In this document: in pieces, positions 3,410 to 21,238 of the stretch
Layout: every line of letters starts with the position of its first letter
How positions within the stretch are numbered: the first letter of the stretch is position 1
Origin: an uncultured Methylomirabilota bacterium
Lineage (GTDB): Bacteria; Methylomirabilota; Methylomirabilia; Methylomirabilales; 2-02-FULL-66-22
Length of the DNA: 64,000 nt
Direction: 5' to 3'
Assembly: GCA_963705305.1 (NCBI GenBank)
Contig: OY970067.1
Coordinates: 4,224,001 to 4,288,000, forward strand
Program-made: the position numbers and the translations under genes
The notes under the pieces: model-generated
What the model was told of the DNA's origin: nothing
Seen by the model: the letters and a program-made list of their open reading frames with translations, nothing else
Database searches by the model: none

Positions 3410-3912
3410 GTCTGCCTCCTTCCAGAGGGCGTGTGGCTCGCCCGCTGCCGGAGCAGGGTGGCGGCCAGGGGCGGGACGAGGTCGTCCACGGCGCCACCCA
3501 GCAGGGCCACCTCCTTCACGAGACGCGAGCTGAGGTAGGTGTAGGATTGGTTGGGCATGAGGAAGATCGTCTCGATCTCGTCGTTGATCTTCCGGTTCAT
3601 GAGGGCCATGGCGAATTCGAACTCGAAGTCCGAGACGGCGCGGACCCCCCGCACGATGACCTGCGCCCCCTTGCTCCGCACGTAGTCGACCGTCAGGTCG
3701 CTGAAGCTGTCCACCTCGACGCGATCCAGGTCCGCGGTGGCCTCCCGCACGATCGCCAGCCGCTCCTCCAGGGTGAAGAGGGGGGTCTTATGGGGATTGT
3801 TCGCCACCGCCACGACCAGCCGCGAAAAGAGCCGCGTGGCCCGGCGCACCAGGTCGATATGGCCGTTGGTGAACGGGTCGAACGTCCCCGGGTAGACCGC
3901 GGTTATTTGCAT
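3406..3912 (-). CDS. coaD: Phosphopantetheine adenylyltransferase
   Basis: MQITAVYPGTFDPFTNGH, RGVRAVSDFEFE, SSRLVKE; start refined to ATG 3912. Confidence 0.95.
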
Positions 3913-4466: not shown

Positions 4467-4602
4467 GCATCCTCCGGGAATACCCCGCCTGTGTTGTGCC
4501 TTGGAAATCTGTTGCCGTGTCGTCACCGCGGCTCTAGCCCGAGCTCATTCTCGCGAATGTTAGGGGCGTGGTAAACTCGAACGGGGGGAGCAGATGGTTT
4601 TT

Positions 4603-4671
4603 CGTCACCCCGGTGAAAACCGGGGTCCAGAACTGCGCCTCGCCTGGATTCCGGCATTCGCCGAAATGACG
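4603..4671. repeat. REP-like doublet (two palindromic units in inverted orientation)
   Basis: CGTCACCCCGGTGAAAACCGGGGTCCAG ... CTGGATTCCGGCATTCGCCGAAATGACG in the recG-rsmD intergenic region. Confidence 0.75.
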
Positions 4672-4719
4672 GAAGGGGATCTGGGGTGCCCCTCCTCGGC
4701 TCTCAGCAGCCTGTTAGGC

Positions 4720-6780
4720 CTACCCCACCCGGGCCAGCCCCACACGGGCCGCCCAGCGCGCCTCCACCGCCCGGCGGAGACCCGCCCAAGGCCCGTCCAG
4801 CTCCGGCGCTTCCGAGAGGACCGCCGCGGCCGCGGCGCGCGCCTCCTCCAAGAGCGCGAGGTCGGCCCGCAGATCCCCCAGCCGGAATCCGTCCACGCCG
4901 GCCTGCCGGGTTCCGAAGAACTCCCCGGGACCGCGCTGGGCCAGGTCCGCCTCCGCCAGCGCAAACCCGTCCCGCTCCCGGACCAGCGCCTCGAGGCGCG
5001 CCCGCGCGTCCTCGGTGATCTCCCCCTGCTCCGCCACCAGGAAGCAGCAGCCCGGGCGATCGGCGCGCCCCACCCGCCCCCGCAGCTGGTGAAGCTGGGC
5101 CAGTCCCAGCCGGTCCGGGTGCTCGATGACGATCGTCGTCGCCTCCGGCACATCCATGCCGACCTCGACGACGGTCGTCGCCACCAGCAGCCCCACCCGT
5201 CCCTCGCGGAAGGCGGCGATCGCCGCCAGCTTCTCGGCCGCGGGCAGGCGGCCGTGGACCAGTCCGACCCCGAACCGGCCCAGGGGGCCGCGCCGGTACA
5301 CATCGGCCGTCTGGACGGCCGCCGTGAGCTCCGCCGCCGACTCGTCCACCACCGGGCACACCACGTAGGCCCGCTCGCCGCGGGCCAGGCGCTCCGCCAG
5401 CATCGCCTGGATGCGGGGCCGCTCGGCGTCCCCCACCCAGGCGGTCTCCACCGGGCGGCGACCGGGGGGCATCTCGTCGATCACGCTGATGTCCAGATCG
5501 CCGTACAGGACCAGCGCCAGGCTCCTGGGGATGGGCGTGGCCGTCATGACCAGGACATGCGGGTGTCCCCCCTTCTGCTGCAGGCTGGCCCGCTGCAGGA
5601 CGCCGAACCGATGCTGCTCGTCCACGACCGCGAAGCCCAGCCGGCCGAAGCGCACGTCCTCCTGCAGCAGGGCGTGGGTCCCGATGACCAGGCACGGAGC
5701 CCCCGACGCCAGCGTCTCCAGGATCGCCTGCCGCGCGCGGCCCGCCACACCGCCCGGCAGGTGCGTCACCGCAACGCCCAGGGGCTCTGCCAGCGCGCGG
5801 GCCCGCTCGGCGTGCTGGGCGGCCAGGATCTCGGTGGGGGCCATCAGGGCCGCCTGGTATCCGTTCCCGACGGCCGTCAGCGCCGCCAGCAGCGCCACGA
5901 TGGTCTTCCCCGAGCCCACGTCGCCCTGGAGGAGCCGCCGCATCGGTTGCGGCTGCGACAGATCGGCCCAGATGGCCTCCAGGGCTGTCCGCTGTCCCGC
6001 CGTCAGGATGAAGGGCAAGGCCGCCAGCGCCTGCTCGGCCAGCGGGCCCGGGGCGCACATTGGAAACCCGGCCAGGCTCGCGCCGGCGCGGCGCGCCTGC
6101 AGCAGCCCCAGGCTGAACAGAAAGAACTCCTCGAAGGCCAGCCGGCGGCGGGCGGTCTCCGCCTCCCCCATCTCGGCTGGCAGATGCAGTCCGGTGATGG
6201 CCTCCGCCAGGGAGACCAGCCGGTGCCGGGACCGCAGGCATTCGGGTAGGACATCCGCCAGGCCGCCGGCGCAACCCCGCACGAGGTCGGCCAGGAACCG
6301 GCGCAGGAAGCGCTGCGACAGACCGGCCGTCAAGGGATAGATGGGGACGATGCGGCCCGTGTGGTACTGCGCATCCTCCCCGTCCAGGACCTCGTACTCC
6401 GGATTGACCATCTCGCGGGGCGGATAGGAGGGTAGCTTGCCCGCCAGGACCAGCGAAAGGCCGCGGCGGAAGATGCGCGAGAGGTACGGCTGGCGGTACC
6501 AGCGCGCCAGGAGCGTTCCGCTGCCGTCCTCCAGCATGATCTCGCAGTAGGGGATTCCCCGCCGGGTCCGGCCGGCGCCCACGGCCTTCACCCGTCCGGC
6601 CACGCTCTGGAACTCTCCCGGGCGGAGGCGCCCGATCGGCAGCAGGGCTCGGCGGTCCTCGTAGCGCCGCGGCACCAGGAGGAGCGCCTCGCCGACCGTC
6701 CGGGCGCCCAGCCTGGCCAGGCGCCCGGCCCGGGACGGCCCGATGCCCGTCAGGGCCGCCAGCGGGGTTTCGGGCGTCAT
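4720..6780 (-). CDS. recG: ATP-dependent DNA helicase RecG
   Basis: Wedge/OB domain, LQGDVGSGKT, DEQHRFG, MTATPIPRSL, QLRGRVGR, RGPGE; start uncertain (6780 or 6828). Confidence 0.95.
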   Translation of the reverse strand: MTPETPLAALTGIGPSRAGRLARLGARTVGEALLLVPRRYEDRRALLPIGRLRPGEFQSVAGRVKAVGAGRTRRGIPYCEIMLEDGSGTLLARWYRQPYLSRIFRRGLSLVLAGKLPSYPPREMVNPEYEVLDGEDAQYHTGRIVPIYPLTAGLSQRFLRRFLADLVRGCAGGLADVLPECLRSRHRLVSLAEAITGLHLPAEMGEAETARRRLAFEEFFLFSLGLLQARRAGASLAGFPMCAPGPLAEQALAALPFILTAGQRTALEAIWADLSQPQPMRRLLQGDVGSGKTIVALLAALTAVGNGYQAALMAPTEILAAQHAERARALAEPLGVAVTHLPGGVAGRARQAILETLASGAPCLVIGTHALLQEDVRFGRLGFAVVDEQHRFGVLQRASLQQKGGHPHVLVMTATPIPRSLALVLYGDLDISVIDEMPPGRRPVETAWVGDAERPRIQAMLAERLARGERAYVVCPVVDESAAELTAAVQTADVYRRGPLGRFGVGLVHGRLPAAEKLAAIAAFREGRVGLLVATTVVEVGMDVPEATTIVIEHPDRLGLAQLHQLRGRVGRADRPGCCFLVAEQGEITEDARARLEALVRERDGFALAEADLAQRGPGEFFGTRQAGVDGFRLGDLRADLALLEEARAAAAAVLSEAPELDGPWAGLRRAVEARWAARVGLARVG

Positions 6781-9877: not shown

Positions 9878-10096
9878 ATGCGAACGCGCAGGTTGAAACC
9901 TCTGAGATCGGCCGACATCCTGGAAGAAATGCGAGCCTGTCCGGTGGTCTATCTGCCTCTCGGAGCGCTGGAATGGCACGAGCCCCACCTGCCGTATGGA
10001 ACGGACCCGCTCTACGCCTACGAATTCGCTCTTCGCCTGGCCGCCACCGACGCCCCGGTCGGTTTCCTGCACAGGAAGCTCCACGCCCGGGCCTGA
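9878..10096 (+). pseudogene. Truncated creatininase/creatinine amidohydrolase-family gene remnant
   Basis: VVYLPLGALEWHEPHLPYGTD matches the family N-terminal E-x-H-G-P-H-L-P-x-G-T-D motif (G replaced by E); only 72 aa. Confidence 0.7.
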
Positions 10097-10194: not shown

Positions 10195-10755
10195 TCAAAC
10201 CCTTGCCAGGTCCCGGCTGCGCTCGCGGACCAGCCACCCGCCCGTGCACAGGTCGAAGCACTGCATGCAGGCGCTGCACTCCTCCTCCATCCCCGGGACC
10301 AGGGCCGGGCGCCGATCGATCCCGCGCCCCTTGAAGTAGATGGCGTTCTTCTTGGCCACCTCCGCGCAGAAGCGCACGCACTTCCCGCACAGGCTGCAGT
10401 CGAGGTGCTCCGTGCTGAAGCGGGACCCGGTGATGCCCAGCTCATTGGCGAACTGGGTCGAGGCCGGCCAGAGCAGCTCGACGATCAGCCGGCGGATCTG
10501 GCGGATCCGGTCCGTGGCCGTCCGCACGACCAGTCCCTCTTCCGCTTCGTGCACGCAGGCTGCAACCAGCTTGCAGCGGCCGCCCCGTGCAATCTCCACC
10601 ATGCAGAGCCGGCAGTCGCCGGCGGGCTTGAGCCGGTCGTCGTGGCACAAGGTCGGGATATAGATCCCCGCCTTTCGCGCCGCCTCCAGGATCGTCATGC
10701 CCTTCTCGGCTGTGGTCTTTTTCCCGTCGATTTCCAGCTTGACTATCGTCTTCAT
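10195..10755 (-). CDS. NuoG/HydA N-terminal-like Fe-S protein (2Fe-2S + 2x4Fe-4S), no catalytic domain
   Basis: IPTLCH...CRLC...AAC; CSLCGKCVRFC; CSACMQCFDLC. Confidence 0.88.
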   Translation of the reverse strand: MKTIVKLEIDGKKTTAEKGMTILEAARKAGIYIPTLCHDDRLKPAGDCRLCMVEIARGGRCKLVAACVHEAEEGLVVRTATDRIRQIRRLIVELLWPASTQFANELGITGSRFSTEHLDCSLCGKCVRFCAEVAKKNAIYFKGRGIDRRPALVPGMEEECSACMQCFDLCTGGWLVRERSRDLARV

Positions 10756-10777: not shown

Positions 10778-12685
10778 CTAGTGAGCAGACAGTGCGGGGG
10801 CCGGCTCGGGCTTCGCCGCCGGCGCCGCGGTCACCTTGCGGACCGCTCGCGATTTGTCCGGGCAGGCCGTCAGGCAGCTCCCGCACTTGATGCACAGCTC
10901 CTGGGAAATCACGTGGGGGGTCTTGGGCGCTCCCGAGATCGCCCCGGTTGGACACGCCTTGACGCACAGGTGGCAGCCCGTGCACTTGTCCGGGTCGATC
11001 CGGTACTCGATCAGCTCCCGGCACACCCCGCTCGGGCAGCGGCGCTCGCGGATATGCGTCTCGAACTCGGGCCGGAAGTGGGTCAGGGCGCTCAGGACCG
11101 GATTGGCCGCGCTGGTTCCTAGGGCGCACAGGGAGGCGTCACGAAGCAACCCGCACAGCTCCTCCAGAAGCTGGAGGTCGCCCTCGCGGCCCCTGCCCGC
11201 GGCGATGTTATTCAGGATGCGGAGCATTTGCCGCAAGCCCTCCCGGCACGGCACGCACTGGCCGCAGGATTCATGGGCCAGGAAGTCCACATAGAATCGG
11301 ACGGCGTCCACCATGCAGGTGTCCTCATCCATGACGATCATGCCGCCCGATCCCATCATGGAGCCGGCCTTGGTCAGCTCGTCGAAGTCCACCGGGAGGT
11401 CCAGCAGACTCTCCGGCAGGAAGCCGCCGGACGGGCCGCCCGTCTGCACGGCCTTGAACCGTTTGTCGCCGGGGATGCCGCCGCCGATCTTGTAGACGAT
11501 CTCCCGCAGGGTGATTCCCATCGGCACCTCGACCAGGCCGGTATTCCGCACCTTGCCGACGAGCGAGAACACCTTGGTGCCGCTGCTCCCCGGGGTGCCC
11601 AGGCTGCGGAACCAGTCCGCCCCCTTGGTGATGATCAGGGGAACGTTGGCCCAGGTCTCCACGTTGTTCAGATTGCTTGGGCACCCCCACAAGCCGCTGA
11701 TCGAGGTGTGCACGTACTTGGGTCGGGGCCTGCCCACGCTGCCCTCGATGGCATTCATCAGCGCGCTGGACTCGCCCGAGACAAACGCGCCGGCGCCCCG
11801 ATGCACGGCCACGTCGAAGTCGAAGCCGGAGCCGAGGATCTCCTTTCCCAACAGGCCGTACTGGCGGGCTTGCGCCAGGGCCTGGAGCGTGTTCTCCACC
11901 GCCAGCGGGTACTCCTGTCGCACGTAGATGTACCCCTGGTGCGCACCGATGGCGTACGCGCCGATGGCAAGGCCCTCCAGGATGCTGTGCGGGTTTCCCT
12001 CCAAGAGGCTGCGGTCCATGTAGGCGCCGGGGTCGCCCTCGTCGGCATTGACGATCACATACTTGGTCTCGCCGGGGGCATTGCGCGTGCTCTCCCATTT
12101 CACGCCCGCCGGGAAGCCGCCGCCGCCCCGGCCGCGCAGGTTGGACTTCTTGATGCGATCGATCACCTCCGCCGGCTTCATCGTGAAGAGCACCCGGGCC
12201 AGGGCGCCGTAGCCGCCGATGGCGATGTAATCCTCGATCTTCTTCGGATCGATCAGCGTGTTGCTGTGCAGCAGGAGGCGCATCTGGTGCGAGTAGAACG
12301 GGATGTCATCCATCGAGGGGAGCCAGCGCCCCGCCTCATCCTGGAAGACGAGCCGCTCCACAACCCGATGCTTGCCGAGCGTCTCGCGGACGATTTCGGG
12401 AACATCCTCCGGCTTGACCCCGAGATAACAGATGTTCTCCGGCTGGATGACCACGACCGGCCCCCGCTCGCAGAAGCCGTAGCAGCCCGTCCGCCGCAGC
12501 TCGATCTCGCCCTCCAGGCCAAGTCGGGCGATCTCCTCCGCAAAGGCCTCGGCGCAAGGCCCGGACTTCGCCGCCACGCAGCCGGTGCCCGAGCAGACGC
12601 TCACGCACCGCCGCCTCCGCTCGCGTTCGGCGGCTTTCTGTCGCTGCAATCCCAGCAGATCCTCGGGTGAACTCAGTCTCGGCAT
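10778..12685 (-). CDS. HydB/NuoF-like NADH-binding flavoprotein (module 2)
   Basis: N-terminal thioredoxin-like 2Fe-2S (CSGTGC, GCYGFC), LRGRGGGGFP, NADEGDPG, GGPSGG, ESCGQCVPCREG, C-terminal 2x4Fe-4S. Confidence 0.92.
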   Translation of the reverse strand: MPRLSSPEDLLGLQRQKAAERERRRRCVSVCSGTGCVAAKSGPCAEAFAEEIARLGLEGEIELRRTGCYGFCERGPVVVIQPENICYLGVKPEDVPEIVRETLGKHRVVERLVFQDEAGRWLPSMDDIPFYSHQMRLLLHSNTLIDPKKIEDYIAIGGYGALARVLFTMKPAEVIDRIKKSNLRGRGGGGFPAGVKWESTRNAPGETKYVIVNADEGDPGAYMDRSLLEGNPHSILEGLAIGAYAIGAHQGYIYVRQEYPLAVENTLQALAQARQYGLLGKEILGSGFDFDVAVHRGAGAFVSGESSALMNAIEGSVGRPRPKYVHTSISGLWGCPSNLNNVETWANVPLIITKGADWFRSLGTPGSSGTKVFSLVGKVRNTGLVEVPMGITLREIVYKIGGGIPGDKRFKAVQTGGPSGGFLPESLLDLPVDFDELTKAGSMMGSGGMIVMDEDTCMVDAVRFYVDFLAHESCGQCVPCREGLRQMLRILNNIAAGRGREGDLQLLEELCGLLRDASLCALGTSAANPVLSALTHFRPEFETHIRERRCPSGVCRELIEYRIDPDKCTGCHLCVKACPTGAISGAPKTPHVISQELCIKCGSCLTACPDKSRAVRKVTAAPAAKPEPAPALSAH

Positions 12686-12729: not shown

Positions 12730-13902
12730 TTATTGCGCCTCTTCCGGGTCCCGGCCCGGCCCGGGCCCGCCGCAGTCCTCGGCCGTCGGGGTCCATGCTG
12801 CCACCAGTTCCCGGGATGCCGGCCCCTTCTCCTTGTAGCCACCGAAGATGGCCTTCAGCTGCTTCAGGGACGGGTTGCTGTGGTACTCCCCGTCGATCTT
12901 CATGACGGGGGCGAGGGCGCAGCACCCGAGACAGTGCACCTCCTTCAGCGTGAAACACAGGTCGGGGTCCGTCTCCCCGGGCTTGAGGCCGAGCAGCGCC
13001 GAGACGGTCGCGCCCAGCTCCCGGGAGCGGCGGACATGGCACGCGGTCCCCATGCAGACCTGGACGGTGTGTCTCCCCTGCGGGGTGAGGCTGAACGCCT
13101 CGTAGAAGTCGGCGATCTCGTAGATCTTGCGCACGGGCACGTTCAGCCGGCGGCTGATCCAGACCAGGGCATGCCGGGGCAGCCAGTGCTTCTCCTCCTG
13201 GATGTCCAGCAGGATCTGGATCAGGGCGTGCTTCTTGAATGCGTGGCGCTCGATGACGCGGTCCACCATGTGGAGGTCATCCAGCAGACCGGCCACCGCC
13301 TTTTCCTTCTCCCGGATCTGCCCCAGATTTCGCACATGGTAGTCCGCCTCCGCCTCCAGGGCGCGCAGCTCCGCGTCGAGGCTTTTGTCCGCCATCCCGA
13401 GCGCGTAGAACTCGCGCTGCACTTCCAGCCCCTTCAGCAGCACGTCGGGCTCGGTCACCGCCGCCGGCGCGGGGACGGCGGGCGGCTCGGGGGCAGGCGC
13501 GGGCGGCTCGTACTTGCGCATCCCCCGGTGCACCGCCTCCAGCAGCTGATCCGGGTCGAAGGGCTTCCGGAGAAAGTCCGAAGCGCCCAGCTTCATGGAG
13601 GCCACGGCGGATTCCACCGATCCGTAGCCCGTGATGACAATCGGAACGATCCGGGCATCGATCTTCGCCAGGGCCTCGAGGACCTGGATCCCGCTCATGC
13701 CGGGCATGCGCAGGTCCAGCAGGACCACCCGAGGCCTCGCCTGTCGCGCCATCTGCAGCCCCGTGTTGCCGTCGGTCGCGACGGCCGCGCGAAAGCCTTC
13801 TCCTTCCAGGGCCTGCCGGCAGCCCTCGCGGATGGACTCCTCGTCGTCGATGACGAGAACGTCCACGCCGGGACTCCTCGTGTCGGTTCGGGTCGTGTTC
13901 AT
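12730..13902 (-). CDS. Response-regulator receiver domain fused to a HydC/NuoE-like 2Fe-2S subunit
   Basis: N-terminal VIDDE...LLDLRMPG...ITGY...KPF receiver; C-terminal LIQILLDIQ...VCMGTACH...CLGCCALAP NuoE domain; one continuous ORF. Confidence 0.9.
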   Translation of the reverse strand: MNTTRTDTRSPGVDVLVIDDEESIREGCRQALEGEGFRAAVATDGNTGLQMARQARPRVVLLDLRMPGMSGIQVLEALAKIDARIVPIVITGYGSVESAVASMKLGASDFLRKPFDPDQLLEAVHRGMRKYEPPAPAPEPPAVPAPAAVTEPDVLLKGLEVQREFYALGMADKSLDAELRALEAEADYHVRNLGQIREKEKAVAGLLDDLHMVDRVIERHAFKKHALIQILLDIQEEKHWLPRHALVWISRRLNVPVRKIYEIADFYEAFSLTPQGRHTVQVCMGTACHVRRSRELGATVSALLGLKPGETDPDLCFTLKEVHCLGCCALAPVMKIDGEYHSNPSLKQLKAIFGGYKEKGPASRELVAAWTPTAEDCGGPGPGRDPEEAQ

Positions 13903-13959: not shown

Positions 13960-13975
13960 AGCAATACCGATGCCA
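13960..13975 (-). promoter_or_regulatory. Sigma54 (-24/-12) promoter for the REC-NuoE/NuoF/Fe-S operon
   Basis: Minus strand TGGCATCGGTATTGCT: GG-N10-GC, about 60 nt upstream of the start codon. Confidence 0.8.
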
Positions 13976-14096: not shown

Positions 14097-14142
14097 GGTA
14101 CGTTTCCGGCCGGCGACACCGATGGAGGGGAGGAAAAGTACC
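14097..14142. promoter_or_regulatory. Putative enhancer (UAS) for the adjacent NtrC-like activator
   Basis: Inverted pair GGTACGTTTCC ... GGAAAAGTACC, about 120-170 bp upstream of the sigma54 promoter. Confidence 0.45.
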
Positions 14143-14148: not shown

Positions 14149-15520
14149 TCAGTCGGGCGAGAGGGCGTACCGCTTCACCTTCTCGCGGAGGGTCTTGCGG
14201 TTGATGCCGAGGTAGTCGGCGGCCTTGGCCATCTGCCAGTGGAAACGCTCCAGGGACTGCGCGATCTCGCGGCGCTCGACCTCGGCGAGGTGGCCCTGGC
14301 CGCAGGCTTCATTCGCCTGGCCCGGGGGGGCGGCCTCGGGCATCGGGCTGTAGAAGAAGAGGTCGCCCGGCGGGATGGTGGCGGCCTCGGTCATGACCAG
14401 GGCGCGCTCGACCGTGTTCTCCAGCTCCCGGACGTTGCCCGGCCAGTCGTAGGCCTCCAGGGCAGACAGGGCGCCCTCCGTGAACCCGCTGACGCGGGGA
14501 TTGCGCCGCGCGGCGTACCGCCGGAGGAAGTGCAGCGCCAGCACGCGGATATCGGCCCGGCGCTCCCGGAGCGGGGGCAGGCGGATGGGGACGACGCTCA
14601 GCCGGTAGAACAGGTCCTCCCGGAAGCGTCCGGCCCGGACCTCCTCCAGCAGATCCTTGTTGGTGGCGGCGATGATCCGGAGGTCCACCTTGATCCGCTG
14701 CGTGCCGCCCACCTTCACGACCTCCCGCTCCTGGAGGACGCGCAGCAGCTTCGCCTGCACATCGGGCCCGATGTTCCCGATCTCGTCGAGAAAGATGGTG
14801 CCCCCGCTGGCCAGCTCGAATTTGCCCGTGGTGGTCTCGGTGGCGCCGGTGTAGGCCCCCCGGACGTGGCCGAACAGCTCGCTCTCCAGCAGGGATTCGG
14901 CCAGGGCGGCGCAGTCCACCACCACGAAGGGCTTGTCGCGCCGGTAGCTCTGGGCGTGAACGGCCCGCGCCGCCAGCTCCTTGCCCACCCCGGTCTCGCC
15001 CGTCAGGAGGACCGTGGCATCCGTGGGGGCGACCTTCTGGATCAGCTTGATCACCTCGGAGATAGCGGGGGAATCGCCGATGATGGTCTCCGGTCCCGAG
15101 CGCTCCTTGAGGGTCAGGCGCAGGGCCAGGTTTTCCATGGCCAGCTGTCTGCGGTCCAGCGCGCGCCCGACGACCGTGGTCAGGACCTCGGGCGTGAACG
15201 GTTTGGGGACATAGTCGTACGCTCCCTGCCGGATGGCCTCGACCGCCGACTCGACCGTCGCGTAGCCCGTGATGACCACCACGACCGTATTGGGGCTGTC
15301 CTCCCGCAGGCGGGCCAGCACTTCCATCCCGCCCATCCCGGGCATCTTGAGGTCGAGCAGCACGACGTTCGAACGACTCCTCGTGCACGGCCCGCAGGCC
15401 CGCCCGGCCGTCGGCTGCGGTCTGTACGCGATAGCCCTCGGCCTCCAGCGCCTGGCGGCACCCCTCCCGTATGGATCCCTCGTCGTCCAGGACGAGGATG
15501 TTCGCCGCTGTCCGGCTCAT
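14149..15520 (-). CDS. NtrC-family sigma54-dependent response regulator (REC-AAA+-HTH), one +1 frameshift at about 15368
   Basis: MSRTAANILVLDDE... joins VVLLDLKMPG after removing one base; [33 protein letters not shown], Fis-type HTH. Confidence 0.9.
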
Positions 15521-17442
15521 GACGGCCGCTCCGCGACAGGGAGACGGATGAAGAAGGTGGTGCCGCGGCCGACCTGGCTGGTGACCCAGATCGTGCCGCC
15601 ATGATTTTCGACGATCCCCCGGCTGATGGACAGGCCGAGCCCGGTGCCCCGGCCGACCTCTTTGGTGGTGAAGAACGGTTCGAACAGACGGTCCAGGTTT
15701 TCCGCCGGGATGCCGCAGCCGGTGTCCCCCACGCTGATCTGGAGCGCCTCCCCCTGCTCGGTCGGCTGGGTGGCGAGGCTTAGCTTTCCCTTGCCCTCCA
15801 TGGCCTCGACCGCGTTAAGGATCAGGTTGATGAACACCTGCTGGAGCTGCGACGCATCCACGCGCACGGGGGGCGCCTCCGGCGCATACCGGCGGATGAC
15901 CTGCACGTCGTGGAACATGGCCTGATGCTCGACGAGCTGAAGGGTCTTGTCCATGAGTTCGGCGACATCGAGCAGCTCCGGCTTGAGCTCGCGCTGGCGG
16001 GAGAAATCCAGCAGCCCCTGGACGATCCGCTGGCAGCGCGCGGCCTCTCCCGCGATCCGCTCCAGGTTCTCGCGCTGCGGGGCGTCGGCTGCGGTCTTGC
16101 GGAGCAGGAGATTGCTGAAGAGCATGATGCCGCCCAGCGGATTGTTGAGCTCGTGGGCCACGCCCGCCGCCAGCCGTCCCACCAGGGCCAGCCGCTCCGC
16201 CTTGCCGACCCGCTCCTGGGTTCGGTACTTCAGCTGGAGGTCCCGCTCCTGAATGGCGGCCGCCATCCGGTTGAACCCCTCCCCCAGCTCCCCGAACTCC
16301 CGGATGGTGCCGTCCGGGTCGACCCGCCGGCCCAGGTTCCCGGCCCCCAGACCGCGGACCCCGTCGACCAGTCCGCGGATCGGATGCATGATCTTCCGCG
16401 CCATGAAGCCGGTGATGGCCAGCGAGAGCAGGACGCCGCCCAAGGTGATGCCGAAGAACAACGCAAAGGCGTCTGCGCGGACGGCCGTGAACTTGCTCTC
16501 GGGAATCCCGACGGCCAGGATGCCGACGACCGCGCCGGTGACATCCCGGATAGGCTCGTAGGCGGTGATGTGCCGCTCGCCGACGACCGTGGCCGGGGCC
16601 ACAAACGGCTTCCCCTCCGCCAGCACGCGCTGCCGGACAGCCTGGTCCAGGCGTGTGCCGAGGGCCGGCCGGCCGTCCCCCAGCTTGGCGTTGGTGGCAA
16701 TCCGGATGTCCCCCAGGCAGATCGTCCCCTCGCCCACCTCCTGCTCCCGGTACGTCTCCCCCTGGTAGGCCGTGCGCTTGATCTCGTCCACGATCCCGGT
16801 GTCGCGGTTGAGGAGTCTGGCCCCGTAGAGGATGCCCAGGCGCCGGCCGTCATCCGCCACGATCGCTGCGGCGGCGCTGAGCAGCATCCCCGACTCCAGG
16901 TCGGGGGCGACCTTCGGGGGGGTCCCGCTCACCGGCAGGATCGGAATGCGGGCCTGCCGGGCCAGCTCCGGGTCCTCGCGCTCCAGCGCCCTATGCCCCG
17001 CGATCGTGGTCGCCGCCATGACCTCCCGTCCGGCGATGACTGCCCGGATGACCGGATCCTCTGCCAGGTCGTCTCCCTCCGCCTTGGGACTCTGAACGCG
17101 CAGGAGGACACGGCCCTGCGGATCGGTCACATCCAGGATGTCCAGCGATTCCCGCGCTCGCACGGCGGCCAGCTCGCGCGACACGGGGGTGAGGCGTCCC
17201 CGCTCGAGCGCTTCATGGATCACCGGGTTGGCCGCGTTCAGGCGGACCGAGTTTCGCACCTCGCCCAGCGCGCCACGGTACACGAGGCGGGCCGCGCTCA
17301 GGTCGTGGCGGGCGCTGTCCTGGGCCTGGTTGGTCACGACCCTGACGATCATCCAGGCCCCCACGAAGCTCGACACCAGCCCGATGGTGAGGATGGCCGC
17401 CAGGAACCCCATCACCAGCCGGGCGTGCAGGCCCAGCCTCAT
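15517..17442 (-). CDS. Membrane sensor histidine kinase (periplasmic Cache-like domains, HAMP, HisKA, HATPase)
   Basis: Two TM segments, AHELNNPL H-box, QVFINLILNA, DTGCGI, FFTTK, GTGLGL; start refined to ATG 17442. Confidence 0.92.
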   Translation of the reverse strand: MRLGLHARLVMGFLAAILTIGLVSSFVGAWMIVRVVTNQAQDSARHDLSAARLVYRGALGEVRNSVRLNAANPVIHEALERGRLTPVSRELAAVRARESLDILDVTDPQGRVLLRVQSPKAEGDDLAEDPVIRAVIAGREVMAATTIAGHRALEREDPELARQARIPILPVSGTPPKVAPDLESGMLLSAAAAIVADDGRRLGILYGARLLNRDTGIVDEIKRTAYQGETYREQEVGEGTICLGDIRIATNAKLGDGRPALGTRLDQAVRQRVLAEGKPFVAPATVVGERHITAYEPIRDVTGAVVGILAVGIPESKFTAVRADAFALFFGITLGGVLLSLAITGFMARKIMHPIRGLVDGVRGLGAGNLGRRVDPDGTIREFGELGEGFNRMAAAIQERDLQLKYRTQERVGKAERLALVGRLAAGVAHELNNPLGGIMLFSNLLLRKTAADAPQRENLERIAGEAARCQRIVQGLLDFSRQRELKPELLDVAELMDKTLQLVEHQAMFHDVQVIRRYAPEAPPVRVDASQLQQVFINLILNAVEAMEGKGKLSLATQPTEQGEALQISVGDTGCGIPAENLDRLFEPFFTTKEVGRGTGLGLSISRGIVENHGGTIWVTSQVGRGTTFFIRLPVAERPS

Positions 17443-17906
17443 CCTGCCGCGACCTCCTCTCGGGCCGCCGCTCGATCGCCGGCCCCTTCCCGGGCGGACG
17501 CCTCCGGCAGGAACTCCAGGGCGCGCGTCGGACAGAACGGGACGCAGCGCGGCTCGCCGCCGCACAGATCGCACTTGGCCGGCCGCTGCGCGAACCCATC
17601 CCACGCCAGGTTGCCGAACGGGCAGGCCGCCACGCAGACGGCGCAGCGGATGCAGCGCTCCTCGAGCACGCGGATGGCGCCGGTCTGCTGATCCCGGACG
17701 AGGGCGTTCGTGGGGCACAGGGCCGCGCAGGCGGCCTCGTGGCACTGCAGACAGGTCAGCGGGATGCCTTGCTCCACGCCCCGGCGCACCACGTGAATGC
17801 GCGGGATTCCCGGCAGGCCCGCCTGCCCATGGCTGAACGCGCAGGCGAGCTCGCACTTGCCGCAGGCAATGCACCGCTCGACGGTCACGCGGAAGATCCC
17901 ACCCAT
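17439..17906 (-). CDS. 4Fe-4S polyferredoxin (CooF/DmsB/AorA-like)
   Basis: CIACGKCELAC, CLQCHEAACAALCP, CIRCAVCVAACP, KCDLC...CVPFCP. Confidence 0.9.
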   Translation of the reverse strand: MGGIFRVTVERCIACGKCELACAFSHGQAGLPGIPRIHVVRRGVEQGIPLTCLQCHEAACAALCPTNALVRDQQTGAIRVLEERCIRCAVCVAACPFGNLAWDGFAQRPAKCDLCGGEPRCVPFCPTRALEFLPEASAREGAGDRAAAREEVAAG

Positions 17907-17918
17907 ACGCTCTTCTCC

Positions 17919-18072
17919 TAGGCTCCTCAAATCTCCATTTCGCCCAGGCTGCTCAAAAGGGCCCAGATGCAAGGCGGTCCGCGATGGGCCGAGTGAGGCG
18001 TACTTCCGGTACGCCGCAGCGAGTGCCCGAGCGGGCCAACGCAGCAGATGGGACTTTTTCAGCAGCCTGTTA
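17919..18072 (-). mobile_element. MITE-like non-autonomous element, copy 1
   Basis: Reverse complement aligns with 31048-31264 (AACAGGCTGCTGAAAAAG.CCCATCTGCTGCGTTGGC...GCTGCGGCGTACC...GCCTTG/CATCTGG...TTTTGAGCAGCC). Confidence 0.8.
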
Positions 18073-18870
18073 TCCGCTCGCGCCCAGCCGCGCGATGGTC
18101 GCCGCCGTGGCGGCCCGCTTGCAGGCGTCGCAGGTCTCGAATTCCCGGCGCGGCACTTGCGAGCGGCCGGCCCAGTAGTCGGCCTGAGCAATCGTGATGT
18201 GGGCCCGACCGCACACCGGGCAGCGCAGCATTGCGAAGCTTTTCCCCCAGATGCGCCGCTCGGCGTCGGATTGCTCGAAGGGGATGTGGCCGGTCGGACA
18301 GATCTCCGCACAGGCCAGACAGCCGATGCAGTCCGGCGGCGGCTGCCCGAACGGCGGGGCCACCGCCTTGGCGACGCCACGCTCCACCAGCGAGATCGCC
18401 GAGACACCCAACCGGTCGCAGACGCGCGTGCACAGGCCGCACAGGATGCAATCGGTGGGCTCGCTGCTTACCCGGTGGCTGGTTTCCGCGATGCCGTATG
18501 ACCGGGCCAGCCGCTGGATCAACGGCGCATCCGGGCAGCGGGCCAGCAGCAGGTCCAGGATCTCGCGGCGGGCGGCCCGCACCCGCTCCGAATCCGTGAG
18601 GACGATCAGTCCCTCCTCGGCCGGGTACATGCACGAGACGACCATGCGGTACTGGCCATCCCAACCCTCCCGTGTGATGTCCACCAGGCACAGCCGGCAG
18701 GCGCCCCAGGGCTCGACCGCCTCGTGGTGACACAGGGCCGGGATGTCGATGCCCGCCGCGCGCGCGGCCTGCAGCAGGCTGGCCCCGGCCGCCGCCCGAA
18801 CAGGCCTTCCGTTCACGGTCAGGGCGACTCGGCCGGCCCCGGGCGCGGCGGTCCTGCGGAGGAGATCCAT
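18070..18870 (-). CDS. NuoG/HydA N-terminal-like Fe-S protein (module 1)
   Basis: IPALCH...GACRLC...VSC, LLARCP, CILCGLCTRVC, CIGCLACAEICP, extra CPVC...CDAC. Confidence 0.88.
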   Translation of the reverse strand: MDLLRRTAAPGAGRVALTVNGRPVRAAAGASLLQAARAAGIDIPALCHHEAVEPWGACRLCLVDITREGWDGQYRMVVSCMYPAEEGLIVLTDSERVRAARREILDLLLARCPDAPLIQRLARSYGIAETSHRVSSEPTDCILCGLCTRVCDRLGVSAISLVERGVAKAVAPPFGQPPPDCIGCLACAEICPTGHIPFEQSDAERRIWGKSFAMLRCPVCGRAHITIAQADYWAGRSQVPRREFETCDACKRAATAATIARLGASG

Positions 18871-20762
18871 CACGCGGCCCTCCTCTCGTCCCGGATCCCT
18901 CCCCGTGGCAGGAACCGGACCGCGCCGGTTGGACACGCGTCATAGCAGGCGCCGCAGCCGACGCAGGCCTCGGGGTCTATCCGATGGGGGCCCTTCGGCT
19001 CGCCCGCGATCGCCTCGACCGGGCAGGCCTTGACGCAGGCGTGGCAGCCGTTGCACACGTCCGCGGCGATCTCGTACACGGTGAGATCCCGGCAGATTCC
19101 GGCCGGACACGCGCGGCGCTCGAGGTGGGCCGTGTACTCGTCCCGGAAGTATAGGAGGGTCGACAGGACCGGGTTGACCGCCGACTTGCCCAGCTCGCAC
19201 AGGCTGGCCAGCTGCATGGCCCGCGCCAGCCGCTCGACGCGCTCCAGGTCGCCCGCCCGGCCCCGCCCGGCCACCAAATCGTCGAAGATCGCCAGCATCT
19301 GCTGCAGCCCTTCGCGGCACGGCACGCACTTGCCGCACGACTCCTCGGCCAGGAAGCGCAGGAAGTAGCGCGCCACGTCCACCATGCAGGTCCGGTCGTC
19401 CATCACGATCATCCCGCCCGACCCCATCATCGAGCCGGCCTCCGCCAGCCGCTCGTAGTCGACCGGAAGATCCAGCAGCGATGCCGGCACGCAGCCCCCC
19501 GACGGGCCGCCGGTCTGCATCGCCTTGAACGGACGGTCATGCAGCACCCCGCCGCCGATGCCGAAGATGATCTCCCGGAGGCTCGTCCCCATCGGCAGCT
19601 CGATGAGGCCGGTGTTTTTGACCTTGCCGACCAGCGAGAAGGCCTTCGTCCCCCGGGACCGCTCCGTGCCCACGGCCGCGAAGGGTTGGGGCCCATGGGC
19701 GAGAATGGCCCCCACATCCGCCCAGGTCTCGACGTTGTTCAGGACGGTGGGCAGGTCGAACAGGCCGCGCGCCGCGGCATGCACGTACTTCACGCGCGGC
19801 TCCCCCACCCGGCCCTCCAGCGAGCGCATGAGCGCCGAGGACTCGCCGCAGACGAACGCCCCGCCCCCCCGCGAGATCGTGATATCGAAGGAGAGGTCGC
19901 TGCCCAGAATGCGCTCGCCCAGCAGGCCGGCCGCCCGCGCGTCCGCAATGGCCGCGCCGAGGGTGCGGACGGCCAGGGGGTACTCGTCCCGCACGTAGAT
20001 GATTCCCTCGCGCGCCCCGACCGCGAAGGCGCCGATCAGCATGCCCTCGAGGACCGCATGGGGATCCCCCTCCATGATCGAGCGGTCCTTGAAGGCCCCG
20101 GGATCCCCCTCGTCGCCGTTGCACAGGACGAACTTGCGATCGCCTGCGCTCGCCCGGCAGGCGCGCCATTTGCGGGCGGTAGGGAAGCCGGCCCCGCCCC
20201 TGCCGCGCAGGCCGGCCTGCTCCACCTCCGCGATCACCTGCTCGGGGCTCATCTCGCACACCGCCCTGACCATTCCCGCATAGGCGCCCTGGCTCACCGC
20301 GTCGGCGAGATCGCCCGGATCGATCCGGCCGATGTTGCGGAGGGCGATGCGGGTTTGCCTGGCGTAGAATGGGATGTCATGCGCCCGCTCGACGCGGCTC
20401 CCATCGGCCGGGTCCCGGTACAACAGGCGCGGGATCACCTTTCCCCCCGCCAGGGTCGTCTCGCAGATCTCGGTCACATCCTCCCGCGTCACCCGGAGGT
20501 AGAGTATCCCCTCGGGCTCGATCACGACCAGCGGGCCGCGCTCGCAAAAGCCGTGGCAGCCGGTCCGCTTGGTGAACGTGCGGACCGCCGCATCCGTTCC
20601 GCGTGCGGCCAGCTCGGCCTCGAAGGCCTCGGCGACCTCGGCCGATCCGTTGGCCAGGCAGCCGGTGCCGCAGCAGATCCGCACCTCGCGCCGGCGCGCA
20701 GCCCGGCGCTCCCGGGCCTGTGCCGCGAACGACCTGAACTGGGCGGCCGACTCGATCCTCAT
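18870..20762 (-). CDS. HydB/NuoF-like NADH-binding flavoprotein (module 1)
   Basis: ICCGTGC, GCHGFC, LRGRGGAGFP, NGDEGDPGAFKDR, GGPSGG, ESCGKCVPCREG, C-terminal 2x4Fe-4S; start refined to ATG 20762. Confidence 0.92.
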   Translation of the reverse strand: MRIESAAQFRSFAAQARERRAARRREVRICCGTGCLANGSAEVAEAFEAELAARGTDAAVRTFTKRTGCHGFCERGPLVVIEPEGILYLRVTREDVTEICETTLAGGKVIPRLLYRDPADGSRVERAHDIPFYARQTRIALRNIGRIDPGDLADAVSQGAYAGMVRAVCEMSPEQVIAEVEQAGLRGRGGAGFPTARKWRACRASAGDRKFVLCNGDEGDPGAFKDRSIMEGDPHAVLEGMLIGAFAVGAREGIIYVRDEYPLAVRTLGAAIADARAAGLLGERILGSDLSFDITISRGGGAFVCGESSALMRSLEGRVGEPRVKYVHAAARGLFDLPTVLNNVETWADVGAILAHGPQPFAAVGTERSRGTKAFSLVGKVKNTGLIELPMGTSLREIIFGIGGGVLHDRPFKAMQTGGPSGGCVPASLLDLPVDYERLAEAGSMMGSGGMIVMDDRTCMVDVARYFLRFLAEESCGKCVPCREGLQQMLAIFDDLVAGRGRAGDLERVERLARAMQLASLCELGKSAVNPVLSTLLYFRDEYTAHLERRACPAGICRDLTVYEIAADVCNGCHACVKACPVEAIAGEPKGPHRIDPEACVGCGACYDACPTGAVRFLPRGGIRDERRAA

Positions 20763-21238
20763 TGGCCGTCTCCGTCGTGCACGATCTTTCCAACGCGGGA
20801 CGCCGTCACCTTGCCGTGGTACCGCTCGCCCACGATCACGACCGGCGCCATGGCGCACGCGCCCACGCAATTGACGGTCTTGAGCGTGAACCCGAGACCG
20901 GGGGTCGTCTCGCCCGGTGCCAGGTGGAGCTGCCGCTCCAGCTCCGCCAAGAGCCGGCCTGCCCCCCGGATGTGGCAGGCGGTCCCGGTGCACACCCGGA
21001 TGACGGTCCGCCCCTGGGGGCGGAGGGCAAACGCCTTGTAGAATGTCGCCACGGAGAAGATCTTGGCCTGCGGGATCGAGAGCGCTTCGGCCACCCGGGC
21101 GAGCACCTCGCACGGCAGATAGGTATAGGAGCGCTGCACGTCCTGCAAGACCTGGATCAGCGACGCTTCCGTCGCCGGATAGCGCGCCAAGATAGCCCCG
21201 AGGGGCGCCGGGTCCACGCACATCAGGCCGTCCGTCAT
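20759..21238 (-). CDS. HydC/NuoE-like 2Fe-2S subunit (module 1)
   Basis: LIQVLQDVQ..Y.YLP, VATFY, VCTGTACH, NCVGACAMAP. Confidence 0.9.
   Translation of the reverse strand: MTDGLMCVDPAPLGAILARYPATEASLIQVLQDVQRSYTYLPCEVLARVAEALSIPQAKIFSVATFYKAFALRPQGRTVIRVCTGTACHIRGAGRLLAELERQLHLAPGETTPGLGFTLKTVNCVGACAMAPVVIVGERYHGKVTASRVGKIVHDGDGQ

Follow-up and report, generated by a model that had tools for sequence, protein, structure and literature searches.

A receiver domain fused to a BfuC-type electron-transfer subunit beside an NtrC-type two-component system: a candidate for kinase-controlled electron bifurcation

Results

In a window of 64,000 nucleotides (the whole stretch of DNA that was analyzed) from an uncultured Methylomirabilota bacterium, we found a gene that joins a receiver (REC) domain with its full catalytic residue set to the NuoE/HydC/BfuC-type [2Fe-2S] subunit of a predicted Bfu-type NADH/ferredoxin module, next to genes for a histidine kinase and an NtrC-type sigma-54 activator. 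We tentatively propose, with somewhat less than an even chance of being right, that the BfuC-tethered receiver is a gate for assembly of the enzyme, for its access to a partner or ferredoxin, or for its bifurcating mode, that the same kinase induces the operon through the sigma-54 activator, and that such receivers evolved several times on NuoE-type subunits, including those of formate-dehydrogenase-type complexes.

One reading frame encodes a receiver, a tether, a helical extension and a NuoE/BfuC-type domain

The fusion protein of 390 amino acids is encoded by an uninterrupted ORF on the minus strand (12730..13902, stop codon included), in a region where the plus strand is closed. Its translation matched Pfam Response_reg (PF00072; residues 15-124, E 5.5e-29, 101 bits vs a cut-off of 30.2) and 2Fe-2S_thioredx (PF01257; residues 214-356, E 4.9e-44, 150 bits, profile positions 2-144 of 145), so that the receiver occupies 13531..13860 (-) and the thioredoxin-like [2Fe-2S] domain 12835..13263 (-). 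Between them lie a variable tether rich in Ala, Pro and Glu (residues ~127-150; 13453..13524, (-)), recognized by column identity and pLDDT, and a helical N-terminal extension conserved in this BfuC clade (residues 151-213; 13264..13452, (-)), recognized in an AlphaFold2 model and the alignment. A first-pass annotation of this DNA had claimed that one ORF joins a receiver with its key residues to a NuoE/HydC domain with four cluster cysteines through a Pro/Ala linker and a helical segment, and every one of these elements was found: D19/D20, D63 in an LLDL motif, T91 and K113-P114 in the receiver, Cys283/288/324/328 in the NuoE domain, and the linker (~127-150) followed by helices (151-219 in the AlphaFold2 model). 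It had also proposed a domain-architecture search across genomes; in the best 120 of about 2,000 matches (51-78% identity, 353-414 aa), both Pfam domains occurred in one protein in 120/120 cases. Because the two domains are kept together in all 120 of these homologues, we regard the fusion as neither a chance event nor a product of assembly. The orthologues from two genomes (G593, G667) and three metagenome loci (L099, L100, L101) are single ORFs as well. Short Logan contigs from the public DNA run X1 were identical to the window where they fit, the linker bins 13408-13609 being without cover, and an Rfam search over positions 1-30000 gave no match.

The tether had a mean column identity of 0.33, and the equivalents of R126 and L156 were 23-71 residues apart (median 33). 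Its pLDDT was about 60 and fell below 50 at residues 138-143; such a flexible tether fits a dock-and-release mechanism. The helical extension, modeled as helices 151-167 and 175-219, showed a mean column identity of 0.63 with 14 positions at ≥90%, and it was also present in REC-less relatives (L102, L103, L187). It had no match in Pfam, and a search of the ESM Atlas with segment 145-222 returned no usable match. The AlphaFold2 model of the full-length protein (pTM 0.47) gave no confident inter-domain geometry, and homodimer predictions scored 0.19 and 0.18 vs a mark of 0.42, which speaks neither for nor against a dimer.

The receiver keeps its catalytic residues and resembles that of the neighboring activator

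The receiver was modeled as a (beta-alpha)5 fold with five strands and five helices at pLDDT >90, and Foldseek aligned it to the solved receivers 3crn, 6ifh and 4d6y with TM scores of 0.92-0.93. The full catalytic set, i.e., acidic pair, acceptor Asp, Thr/Ser, Lys and aromatic switch residue, is kept in the fusion protein; the roles of these positions follow the CheY paradigm. Among the 120 family members, D19, F110, K113 and P114 were invariant, D20 was found in 116, and T91 was Thr in 117 and Ser in three. Loss of the acceptor Asp in homologues had been named in the first-pass annotation as an observation that would speak against a phosphorylation switch; position 63 was Asp in 115 of the 120 and Glu in five. 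With a mean column identity of 0.73 for the receiver vs 0.72 for the NuoE domain, the receiver residues are under strong constraint. The receiver of one clade member (L101) is partly degenerate, with DS for DD and R for K.

The closest paralogue of this receiver within its own genome was that of the neighboring NtrC-type regulator (53% identity). BfuC and activator receivers from the same locus shared 45-53% identity, vs 32-36% with an unrelated NtrC-type receiver, and in a REC tree they fell on one side of a weakly supported branch (SH-aLRT 83). The single conserved Cys of the fusion receiver is C28, and a Cys in helix alpha-1 is common to the BfuC and activator receivers. In this kinase-docking helix, the two receivers of a locus were identical at 16/19 positions (window), 11/19 (L099) and 6/19 (L100); since the similarity is so uneven, shared kinase specificity is not demonstrated by it, and we rejected it as proof.

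The operon is best read as a soluble Bfu-type module with a short BfuA

The four cluster cysteines of the NuoE domain (CX4C...CX3C) were invariant in 120/120 family members, and its best solved relatives were the BfuC/HydC chains 7p5h_C, 7t2r_C, 9bov_C, 8a6t_C and 9mqx_C. A NuoF-like gene begins 44 nt downstream, a pairing seen in every related locus long enough to show it. Its product, a BfuB (NuoF/HydB-like) flavoprotein of 635 aa (10778..12685, (-)), was identified by Pfam domains, Cys motifs and alignment to solved BfuB: an N-terminal 2Fe-2S_thioredx domain, Complex1_51K (FMN), SLBB, NADH_4Fe-4S and two C-terminal Fer4 domains, with cysteines at C31/36/68/72, C474/477/480/520, C550/555, C568-578 and C598-608. 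It aligned over residues 1-615 to the bifurcating BfuB chains 7t2r_B (1.7e-228) and 9mqx_B (1.6e-222), whereas complex I NuoF chains aligned only to about residues 147-549. The Bfu family is defined by its conserved BfuBC core, and the N-terminal [2Fe-2S] and C-terminal 2x[4Fe-4S] clusters of BfuB are described as having no counterpart in non-bifurcating NuoF homologues (PMC9304861; Schut et al. 2022). Judged by domains, Cys motifs and alignment, BfuB carries the FMN and the five cluster sites expected of this family.

The third gene (10195..10755, (-)) encodes a short BfuA of 186 aa with Pfam Fer2_4 and Fer4_7 matches, i.e., one [2Fe-2S] and two [4Fe-4S] sites (Cys37/48/51/67 and two CxxCxxCxxxC motifs) and no catalytic domain. 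Its residues 5-175 aligned to WorA (9mqx_A), which at 247 aa differs in having a C-terminal zinc finger and an adaptor helix. The first-pass annotation had called the genes a three-gene HydCBA-like operon, and its electron-transfer parts are as claimed, but the third product lacks an H-cluster domain. We therefore rejected the hydrogenase reading, as PF02906 also went unmatched throughout the genome (98.9% complete) but did match in control genomes. The complex is best read as a predicted soluble three-subunit Bfu-type NADH/ferredoxin module. It resembles WorABC of WorABCSL (PDB 9MQX; PMC12318220) and NiFe-HydABCSL (7T2R) in its NuoE-type domain and in the N- and C-terminal cluster domains of BfuB, with a WorA-like short BfuA, and it differs from WorABCSL in that no WorSL-like or other third-substrate subunit adjoins. 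It also differs from solved or described BfuC proteins in having a receiver and the 60-residue helical extension, both absent from them, the Foldseek and phmmer matches being at the level of domains only. No catalytic module for a third substrate adjoined the operon in the window, L099, L100, L186 or L190, and BfuA is only a short electron conduit; therefore, the third redox partner may be encoded elsewhere. A divergent PFOR gene adjoins the REC-less locus L102, and a separate OFOR-Bfu cluster lies upstream in the window.

A kinase, an NtrC-type activator and a sigma-54 type promoter adjoin the fusion gene

A gene for an NtrC-type sigma-54 activator (REC-AAA+-HTH_8; 14149..15520, (-)) was recognized by Pfam and NCBIfam on two overlapping ORFs. 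Comparison by tblastn with the orthologue from L099 placed a break between the two frames near 15366-15370, just before the LLDL phospho-acceptor motif, which amounts to a single-base frameshift; no public contig piece from two DNA runs bridges the break near 15369. The start codon of the activator gene overlaps the stop codon of a kinase gene (ATGA) at 15517..17442 (-), whose product was read from Pfam as a membrane sensor histidine kinase with the order TM, periplasmic sCache_3, TM, HAMP, HisKA and HATPase. The true start of the kinase is M145 of a longer ORF, as indicated by alignment to the L099 and L100 orthologues (q145-783) and by hydrophobic segments at ~152-178 and ~467-492; its ATG overlaps the stop of an upstream Fe-S gene. 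The neighboring kinase of the first-pass annotation is thus a histidine kinase that is indeed near, but between it and the fusion gene lies the NtrC-type activator gene, which had gone unmentioned. This activator is the obvious partner of the kinase and most probably activates the operon at a sigma-54 promoter.

A sigma-54 type -24/-12 element, TGGCATCGGTATTGCT (13960..13975, (-)), begins 73 nt upstream of the ATG of the fusion gene and matches TGGCAY-N5-TTGCW exactly, being one of only two exact matches in the 64-kb window. The promoter is called because of its position and conservation and not because of the match count, which by itself was not above chance (at least three matches at no more than one mismatch in 38 of 100 shuffles): TGGC-N8/9-TGC preceded the fusion gene by 73-124 nt in five of six clade loci and was found upstream in neither of two REC-less loci examined. 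Farther upstream, at 14097..14142 (-), the window carries two degenerate copies of the palindrome GGTAC-N5-GTACC (14128-14142 with two mismatches and 14097-14111 with three) at -240 and -209, and the two good copies of L100 are at -240 and -210. In L099, L100, L186, L190 and L101, a good copy precedes the fusion gene by 164-256 nt; a scan of 226,032 nt gave 13 matches, six of them inside these upstream regions, and the palindrome was not found upstream of the REC-less relatives examined. It is the probable binding site of the activator. All parts of an NtrC-type system are thus present, namely a HisKA and HATPase kinase, a REC-Sigma54_activat-HTH_8 regulator, a -24/-12 promoter and upstream sites; in this genome, the regulator is frameshifted and the sites are degenerate, which may leave the circuit defective.

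The arrangement is conserved in a clade, and receivers were recruited to NuoE-type subunits repeatedly

Neighborhoods were compared for six loci of the fusion clade, three distant or split forms and three REC-less forms. The gene order kinase, NtrC-type activator, REC-BfuC, BfuB and short BfuA was found in four of the six clade loci (the window, L099, L100 and L190). No kinase adjoins the other two: in L186 (G593), the kinase-activator pair lies 27 kb away on the same contig, and for L101 the upstream sequence extends no farther than 3 kb. Relatives that lack the receiver but share the helical extension, BfuB and short BfuA were found (L102, L103, L187, G678); therefore, the receiver is an add-on to a working enzyme.

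Eleven further clusters at 50% identity are direct REC-NuoE fusions, one of which (L147) adjoins a formate-dehydrogenase-type BfuA; a fused and a split form make a pair (P0146 vs L120). The REC tree forces at least three origins of the direct fusions, the clade described here not counted, and NuoE-type subunits acquired receivers in several independent events. The acceptor is Ser in P0197 and Glu in P0252, while P0162 and P0169 are without the acidic pair and Thr; from such losses, and from the Glu in five of the 120 clade members, it follows that some lineages work without phosphorylation.

Neither 40 relatives (20 from the same genus) nor the other 250 genomes of the phylum that were searched yielded the fusion. 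Base composition gave no signal of recent horizontal transfer, as the locus, with a GC content of 0.67-0.71, matches its surroundings; the patchy distribution remains. A contig scan with the single fusion protein as query yielded generic receiver matches in 80/80 loci (≤37% identity over residues 1-170). This fusion is common in metagenomes from sediments and wetlands, where its annotation is only 'NADH-quinone oxidoreductase subunit E', and it has thereby been systematically overlooked.

Discussion

Our preferred reading is that control of the enzyme is dual. A membrane kinase with a periplasmic Cache domain would phosphorylate two receivers, that of the activator and that of BfuC. The phosphorylated NtrC-type activator would bind the upstream palindrome and open the sigma-54 promoter of the operon, and phosphorylation of the second receiver, held on BfuC by its flexible linker of 23-71 residues and the clade-specific helical extension, would change the docking of this receiver, whether on the BfuBC core or on a second trimer, thereby switching activity, partner binding or oligomeric state. 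The same signal would thus make the enzyme and license it, in a feed-forward manner. The chances that one kinase feeds, by phosphorylation, both the activator and the enzyme-borne receiver seem to us evenly balanced; we infer both the phosphorylation of the fusion protein by the kinase and its effect on the enzyme, including the direction of that effect. The first-pass annotation had suggested that the kinase may directly switch a flavin/Fe-S complex. This idea is sustained by the constrained receiver, by the kinase adjoining four of the six loci and by the activator receiver being the closest paralogue, but it needs amendment in three respects: the control would be dual and not direct only, the complex is not a hydrogenase, and both phosphotransfer to the fusion and any effect on assembly or electron flow are predictions.

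A somewhat unlikely alternative is that REC-BfuC, once induced, draws phosphoryl groups away from the activator or binds to the kinase, thereby damping its own induction, a feedback that the redox state of the [2Fe-2S] cluster or flavin may tune, joining the internal NADH/ferredoxin status to the external Cache signal. The synteny, the likeness to the activator receiver and the intact catalytic residues would fit such a phosphate sink equally well, and the position of the fusion gene as the first gene under the sigma-54 promoter is a classic negative-feedback layout. There is also a precedent in FixT, an Fe-S-binding single-domain receiver that feedback-inhibits the FixL kinase (PMC7078487); however, the FixT cluster lies within the receiver itself, and the BfuC receiver has C28 as its only conserved Cys. 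A sink, moreover, needs no covalent link to an enzyme, whereas the fusion is kept in all 120 homologues and fusions of receivers to NuoE-type subunits arose on several occasions. NuoE, BfuB and BfuA keep all their cluster ligands and, like their counterparts in the REC-less relatives, look like parts of an enzyme that works.

It is also conceivable, but in our judgment improbable, that the circuit is decaying in this genome, i.e., that a horizontally acquired module with a broken activator is now silent or rewired, which would be compatible with the other readings for the family as a whole. The single-base frameshift just before the phospho-acceptor motif of the activator, the mismatches (two and three) in the palindromes vs good copies in relatives, and the absence of the fusion from the relatives and other genomes searched in the phylum point in this direction. 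On the other hand, an assembly error may account for the frameshift, the ORFs of the fusion, BfuB, BfuA and the kinase are intact, the -24/-12 element is perfect, and the locus does not stand out in GC content.

Distinctly improbable, in our view, is a receiver that acts independently of phosphorylation, its fold having no role beyond structure, assembly or partner binding in the complex. Residue losses in P0197, P0252, P0162, P0169 and L101 and Glu63 in the five clade members would agree with such a pseudo-receiver, as would MSMEG_2064, which is bound in a complex I structure with its acceptor Asp occluded (PMC10068793). The catalytic set of the clade nevertheless hardly varies, the K-P pair and the T/F switch pair included, whereas pseudo-receivers do not usually retain such residues. 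A kinase and a sigma-54 activator have also remained linked to the fusion gene. Finally, a merger of two genes by sequencing or assembly error has a negligible probability and is effectively refuted by the same two-domain single ORF in 120/120 homologues from many independent assemblies and in the orthologues of G593, G667, L099, L100 and L101.

Returning to dual control of a Bfu-type enzyme, relevant comparisons exist for its separate elements. In CheB, a response regulator with an enzymatic output, a flexible linker joins the receiver to the catalytic domain, which the receiver blocks until it is phosphorylated. The fusion protein is like such regulators in combining a receiver, a flexible linker and a non-DNA-binding output, where phosphorylation relieves or imposes an intramolecular contact, and unlike CheB in that its output is not a catalytic domain but a subunit that carries a cluster within a hetero-oligomeric electron-transfer enzyme. 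The nearest precedent is Rv3143/MSMEG_2064 of mycobacterial complex I, a receiver in an NADH-oxidizing Fe-S/flavin complex that is proposed to be a modulator and whose gene lies in the same operon as the complex I genes, 5' of nuoA, which sets a precedent for a receiver as a subunit (PMC10068793; PMC9274095). MSMEG_2064 is a free single-domain protein at NuoB/A/C/I, at the junction with the membrane arm and not at NuoE, and its kinase is not known; the BfuC receiver, by contrast, is covalently attached to the NuoE-type subunit of a soluble module with a candidate kinase adjoining and no nuoA-N genes adjoining. The resemblance is functional only, on a common REC fold. FixT of Caulobacter likewise combines a receiver and an iron-sulfur cluster within a two-component circuit, but it binds the cluster through a four-Cys motif in the receiver and has no enzyme partner, whereas here the cluster is in the separate NuoE domain of an oxidoreductase (PMC7078487). 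Signaling domains also occur in Bfu-type clusters as sensory group C [FeFe]-hydrogenase subunits with PAS and histidine-kinase domains beside Bfu hydrogenases; these are sensor or transmitter modules on hydrogenase-like subunits, and none of those described is a receiver on BfuC (PMC11406978). Neither the text and one supplementary file of PMC9304861 (for 'response regulator', 'receiver' and 'CheY') nor the text of PMC11406978 (for 'response regulator' and 'receiver') contained the terms searched, and no description of a receiver fused to NuoE/HydC/BfuC was found in the literature searched, most subscription journals being outside its scope.

Bfu-type enzymes set the NADH/ferredoxin balance in many anaerobes, and their control, if considered at all, is treated in the literature surveyed as transcriptional or thermodynamic. 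The BfuC cluster has been proposed as the 'gate' of bifurcation (PMC9304861). If our reading is true, the receiver described here would be a kinase-operated switch on this gate subunit and a first instance of flavin-based electron bifurcation being placed under rapid post-translational control that depends on a signal. Two-component signaling would gain a redox-complex subunit as a class of output, for which Rv3143 is the only experimentally studied relative in the literature found. With kinase, activator, promoter, receiver and enzyme encoded within 8 kb, the locus would offer a tractable system for post-translational regulation of bifurcation.

Domain architecture and conservation of the fusion protein

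The ORF at 12730-13902 on the minus strand was intact (390 codons), and it encodes an N-terminal receiver domain (REC; residues 15-124, Pfam E 5.5e-29) and a thioredoxin-like [2Fe-2S] domain of the NuoE/HydC type (BfuC; residues 214-356, Pfam E 4.9e-44). All of the residues singled out in the first-pass annotation were confirmed, namely the acidic pair D19/D20, the phospho-acceptor D63 in its LLDL motif, T91, K113-P114 and Cys283/288/324/328, and, judged by its sequence, the N-terminal domain passes as a receiver. An AlphaFold2 model built from 120 relatives (mean pLDDT 85, pTM 0.47) had four parts: a confident (beta-alpha)5 receiver (residues 15-131), a disordered Ala/Pro-rich stretch (residues ~132-150), a helix (151-167) followed by a long one (175-219) entering the NuoE four-helix bundle, and a thioredoxin fold (278-358); the last 30 residues were disordered. 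The receiver hangs by a flexible leash on the NuoE-type domain. Foldseek and phmmer comparisons with the PDB gave domain-level matches only, the C-terminal half resembling BfuC/HydC chains of bifurcating enzymes (7p5h_C, 9bp5_C, 9mqx_C, 7t2r_C) and the N-terminal half free receivers, and no solved chain carrying both a receiver and a NuoE-type domain was found there.

A search of 5.8 billion proteins with the fusion protein yielded 2,021 matches at E<=0.001 among 7,998 candidates scored. The best 120 of these 2,021 matches (51-78% identity, 353-414 aa) all contained PF00072 together with PF01257, which bears out the architecture proposed from the single ORF; the fusion is a protein family and no accident. 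Where these homologues were named at all, they were annotated as "NADH-quinone oxidoreductase subunit E". Among them, D19 was kept in 120 and D20 in 116, position 91 was Thr in 117 and Ser in 3, the aromatic switch residue F110 as well as K113 and P114 were present in 120 each, and the four cluster cysteines were invariant. The phospho-acceptor, whose loss from homologues the first-pass annotation had taken to count against phosphorylation gating, was Asp in 115 and Glu in the other 5. Mean column identity reached 0.73 in the receiver and 0.72 in the NuoE domain; it was 0.63 in the helical segment and 0.33 in the tether, an A-, P- and E-rich stretch of 23-71 residues (median 33). The receiver is therefore constrained as much as the cluster domain.

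A further residue, C28 in receiver helix alpha-1 (motif GC-Q, about 13819-13821), was a Cys in 118/120 fusion proteins. The partner NtrC-type activators of the window and of four metagenomic or genomic loci (L099, L100, L147 and L168) have the same Cys in their receivers; an unrelated NtrC-type receiver (L099_NtrC2) and the receivers of direct fusions lack it. It is possibly a redox-sensitive or specificity residue.

The fusion protein belongs to a predicted Bfu-type complex

The gene after the fusion (10778-12685) encodes BfuB, a NuoF/HydB-type flavoprotein of 635 aa. Its N-terminus is a thioredoxin-like [2Fe-2S] domain and its C-terminus a ferredoxin domain with 2x[4Fe-4S]; it also has FMN and SLBB domains, the [4Fe-4S] site of NuoF and one further pair of Cys. 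It aligned end to end with solved bifurcating BfuBs (7t2r_B, 1.7e-228; 9mqx_B, 1.6e-222; then, in order, 8a6t_B, 7q4v_B, 9bov_B, 9n5u_B and 7p5h_B), and complex I NuoF chains spanned only its residues 147-549. Extra cluster domains are the criterion by which Schut et al. tell true Bfu enzymes apart from relatives that do not bifurcate (PMC9304861). The product of the third gene (10195-10755) is a short BfuA of 186 residues with one [2Fe-2S] site and two CxxCxxCxxxC motifs, and its residues 5-175 align with WorA (9MQX), a short BfuA of 247 residues that belongs to the tungsten aldehyde oxidoreductase WorABCSL (PMC12318220). At the sequence level, the complex thus described passes as a Bfu family member.

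The operon had been called HydCBA-like. This name holds for the electron-transfer scaffold and not for a hydrogenase: the 186-residue third subunit has no H-cluster domain, PF02906 was unmatched in the whole 98.9%-complete genome, and the HydABC reading was therefore dropped. No catalytic module for a third substrate besides NAD(H) and ferredoxin was found downstream of the operon in the window, L099, L100, L186 or L190. At L102 (5762-9655, minus strand), which belongs to a receiver-less relative, a fused pyruvate:ferredoxin oxidoreductase of 1,297 aa is divergent from the helix-BfuC/BfuB/short-BfuA operon, a neighbour which hints that the clade's missing third reaction could be the oxidation of 2-oxoacids. 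In the 850-nt gap between short BfuA and relA/spoT, a 72-codon ORF (9878-10096, plus strand) matched only the first 50 of 238 positions of the Creatininase profile (E 3.1e-10) and looks like a gene remnant.

A kinase, an activator and a candidate sigma-54 promoter accompany the operon

Upstream of the fusion operon and on the same (minus) strand lies a paralogous Bfu set tied to a 2-oxoacid:ferredoxin oxidoreductase (OFOR; 17439-23420). It comprises a ferredoxin (23142-23420), OFOR alpha (22034-23197) and beta (21235-22041), NuoE (about 20759-21230), NuoF (18870 to about 20760), a 288-aa BfuA (18070-18936) and a PadI-like polyferredoxin (about 17439-18070), and resembles the "Por-Bfu" enzymes predicted in PMC9304861. 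At its head are a sigma-54-like element with one mismatch (24342-24357) and a divergent XylR_N/V4R-type sigma-54 activator (24431-26092).

Between this cluster and the fusion gene we found two regulatory genes overlooked in the first-pass annotation, both on the minus strand: a membrane histidine kinase (TM, periplasmic sCache_3, TM, HAMP, HisKA, HATPase; 15517-17442) and an NtrC-type sigma-54 activator (14149-15520). ATGA start/stop overlaps join polyferredoxin to kinase (17439-17442) and kinase to activator (15517-15520), so the two-component genes look co-transcribed with the OFOR-Bfu cluster in this genome. An exact TGGCAY-N5-TTGCW element (13960-13975) begins 73 nt upstream of the fusion ATG, within a 246-nt gap. 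The number of such matches in the window was by itself not above chance, and the weight for the element comes from comparison with relatives.

Six clade loci with flanks were available (the window, L099, L100, L101, L186 from genome G593 and L190 from genome G667). Four of them (the window, L099, L100 and L190) share the order Cache-HAMP kinase, NtrC-type activator, REC-BfuC, BfuB and short BfuA, in agreement with the kinase neighbour noted at first pass. In G593 the operon stands alone, with the orthologous kinase-activator pair 27 kb off on the same contig, and L101 has no kinase within its 3 kb of upstream sequence. In 5/6 loci, L101 being the exception, the fusion gene was preceded at 73-124 nt by TGGC-N8/9-TGC, which occurred upstream in neither of the two receiver-less relatives examined. 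Furthermore, a GGTAC-N5-GTACC palindrome with an A/T spacer was located 164-256 nt upstream in L099, L100 (twice), L186, L190 and L101, and these six copies made up 6 of the 13 matches across 226,032 nt scanned. The element and the upstream palindromes are arranged in what would be the classic way for a sigma-54 promoter that depends on an enhancer. In the window the palindromes are degenerate, with 2 mismatches at -240 and 3 at -209, and their positions equal those of L100. The activator gene of the window is split over two frames by a one-base change near 15366-15370 (minus strand), directly ahead of the LLDL motif that holds its phospho-acceptor; no homopolymer run is present at the site (…TTCGAACGTCGTG…). 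The frameshift reflects either a real pseudogene in a decaying circuit of this organism or an assembly indel.

A second exact TGGCAY-N5-TTGCW element lies at 63162-63177 (plus strand). At L099, a divergent second set (2-5349, minus strand) of short cytoplasmic kinase, NtrC-type activator, plain NuoE and NuoF adjoins the REC-BfuC operon; it amounts to a second Bfu paralogue that has a two-component pair of its own, and recalls the pairing of modules in the window.

Receivers were recruited repeatedly to NuoE-type subunits

Clustering at 50% identity reduced the window's clade to one representative (P0031), and 11 further clusters were direct REC-NuoE fusions, shorter (284-335 aa) and devoid of the helical segment. 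In the NuoE-domain tree, 29/29 REC+helix sequences formed one clade (SH-aLRT 99), within which fell two short "helix-only" sequences that may be fragments, and 11/13 direct fusions were placed elsewhere. The neighbours of this clade were receiver-less helical forms, which head otherwise identical operons at L102, L103 and L187 (genome G541); a further protein of this form was matched in G678. In the receiver tree, the 13 receivers of the fusion clade formed one group (SH-aLRT 95) and the activator receivers of L099, L100, G667 and G593 another (98). A weakly supported branch (83) places both on the same side, along with one long-branch sequence, and excludes five of six other receivers from this genome. 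In the window the fusion and activator receivers are 53% identical and both have the helix alpha-1 Cys; on this basis the fusion clade's receiver is probably an old duplicate of its partner activator's.

Direct fusions require at least three origins in the receiver tree; receivers were thus recruited repeatedly to NuoE-type subunits. L147 (3445-9817) and L168 (9890-12332) share the order GAF-kinase, NtrC-type activator, free receiver protein (231-250 aa), REC-NuoE and NuoF, followed in L147 by a 921-aa formate-dehydrogenase-type BfuA; the free and fused receivers are 64-73% identical, with an E-D acidic pair in both. L120 (1447-5563) has a split form, in which an activator, a 340-aa REC-TPR/Cys-rich protein, a plain NuoE (152 aa), NuoF and short BfuA follow each other. 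Its receiver is sister (SH-aLRT 99) to the near-identical one fused straight to NuoE in P0146 (299 aa), and the two are split and fused versions of one system. Other add-ons of NuoE-type subunits were FUR-like, MvhD/FlpD(-like) and Fer4_11 domains, placed N-terminally, and a C-terminal B12-binding domain (P0166, P0251, P0281, P0280, P0204), and in one 578-aa protein of this group Pfam matches two stretches to the receiver profile and two to the NuoE profile. For such additions, the N-terminus of the NuoE-type subunit seems to act as a hotspot.

The wide genome searches scored few candidates per genome, and their negatives are therefore reported as "not found" and not as absence: neither 40 relatives (20 from the same genus and 20 from the same order, the unpublished genome G028 among them) nor any other of 250 genomes searched in the phylum yielded the fusion. 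It was found once, with one receiver-less form, in a sample of 401 genomes drawn from the phylum to which a Desulfobacteraceae MAG belongs, and once more, again with one receiver-less form, among 60 relatives of that match. The base composition of the locus was unremarkable.

Possible roles of the receiver

The best-supported reading, to which we give an even chance, is a branched two-component pathway in which one Cache kinase feeds both the activator and the BfuC receiver. The kinase would phosphorylate the activator, switching on the sigma-54 promoter, and would also phosphorylate the receiver on BfuC; the phosphorylated receiver may then dock differently on the BfuBC core or a neighbouring trimer, so that the enzyme is licensed or blocked. 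The main rival reverses the arrow: the induced fusion protein would drain or block the kinase, possibly redox-dependently, as FixT is described to act on FixL (PMC7078487). We regard this as a rather unlikely alternative. A structural receiver acting independently of phosphorylation, as suggested by distant fusions with Ser at the acceptor (P0197) or no acidic pair (P0162, P0169), where such receivers are real, is improbable for the fusion clade with its invariant catalytic set.

The nearest studied system is MSMEG_2064/Rv3143, an orphan regulator described in PMC10068793 and PMC9274095 as belonging to mycobacterial complex I as a structural subunit; when bound, it has its acceptor Asp occluded (PMC10068793). 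The likeness is functional and not homologous. In the full-text literature, whose coverage leaves out most subscription journals, no account of a receiver borne by NuoE/HydC/BfuC was found. As for the branched pathway, the flexible tether, the existence of receiver-less relatives that look functional and the recruitment of receivers on repeated occasions are all consistent with a regulatory domain that was added on.
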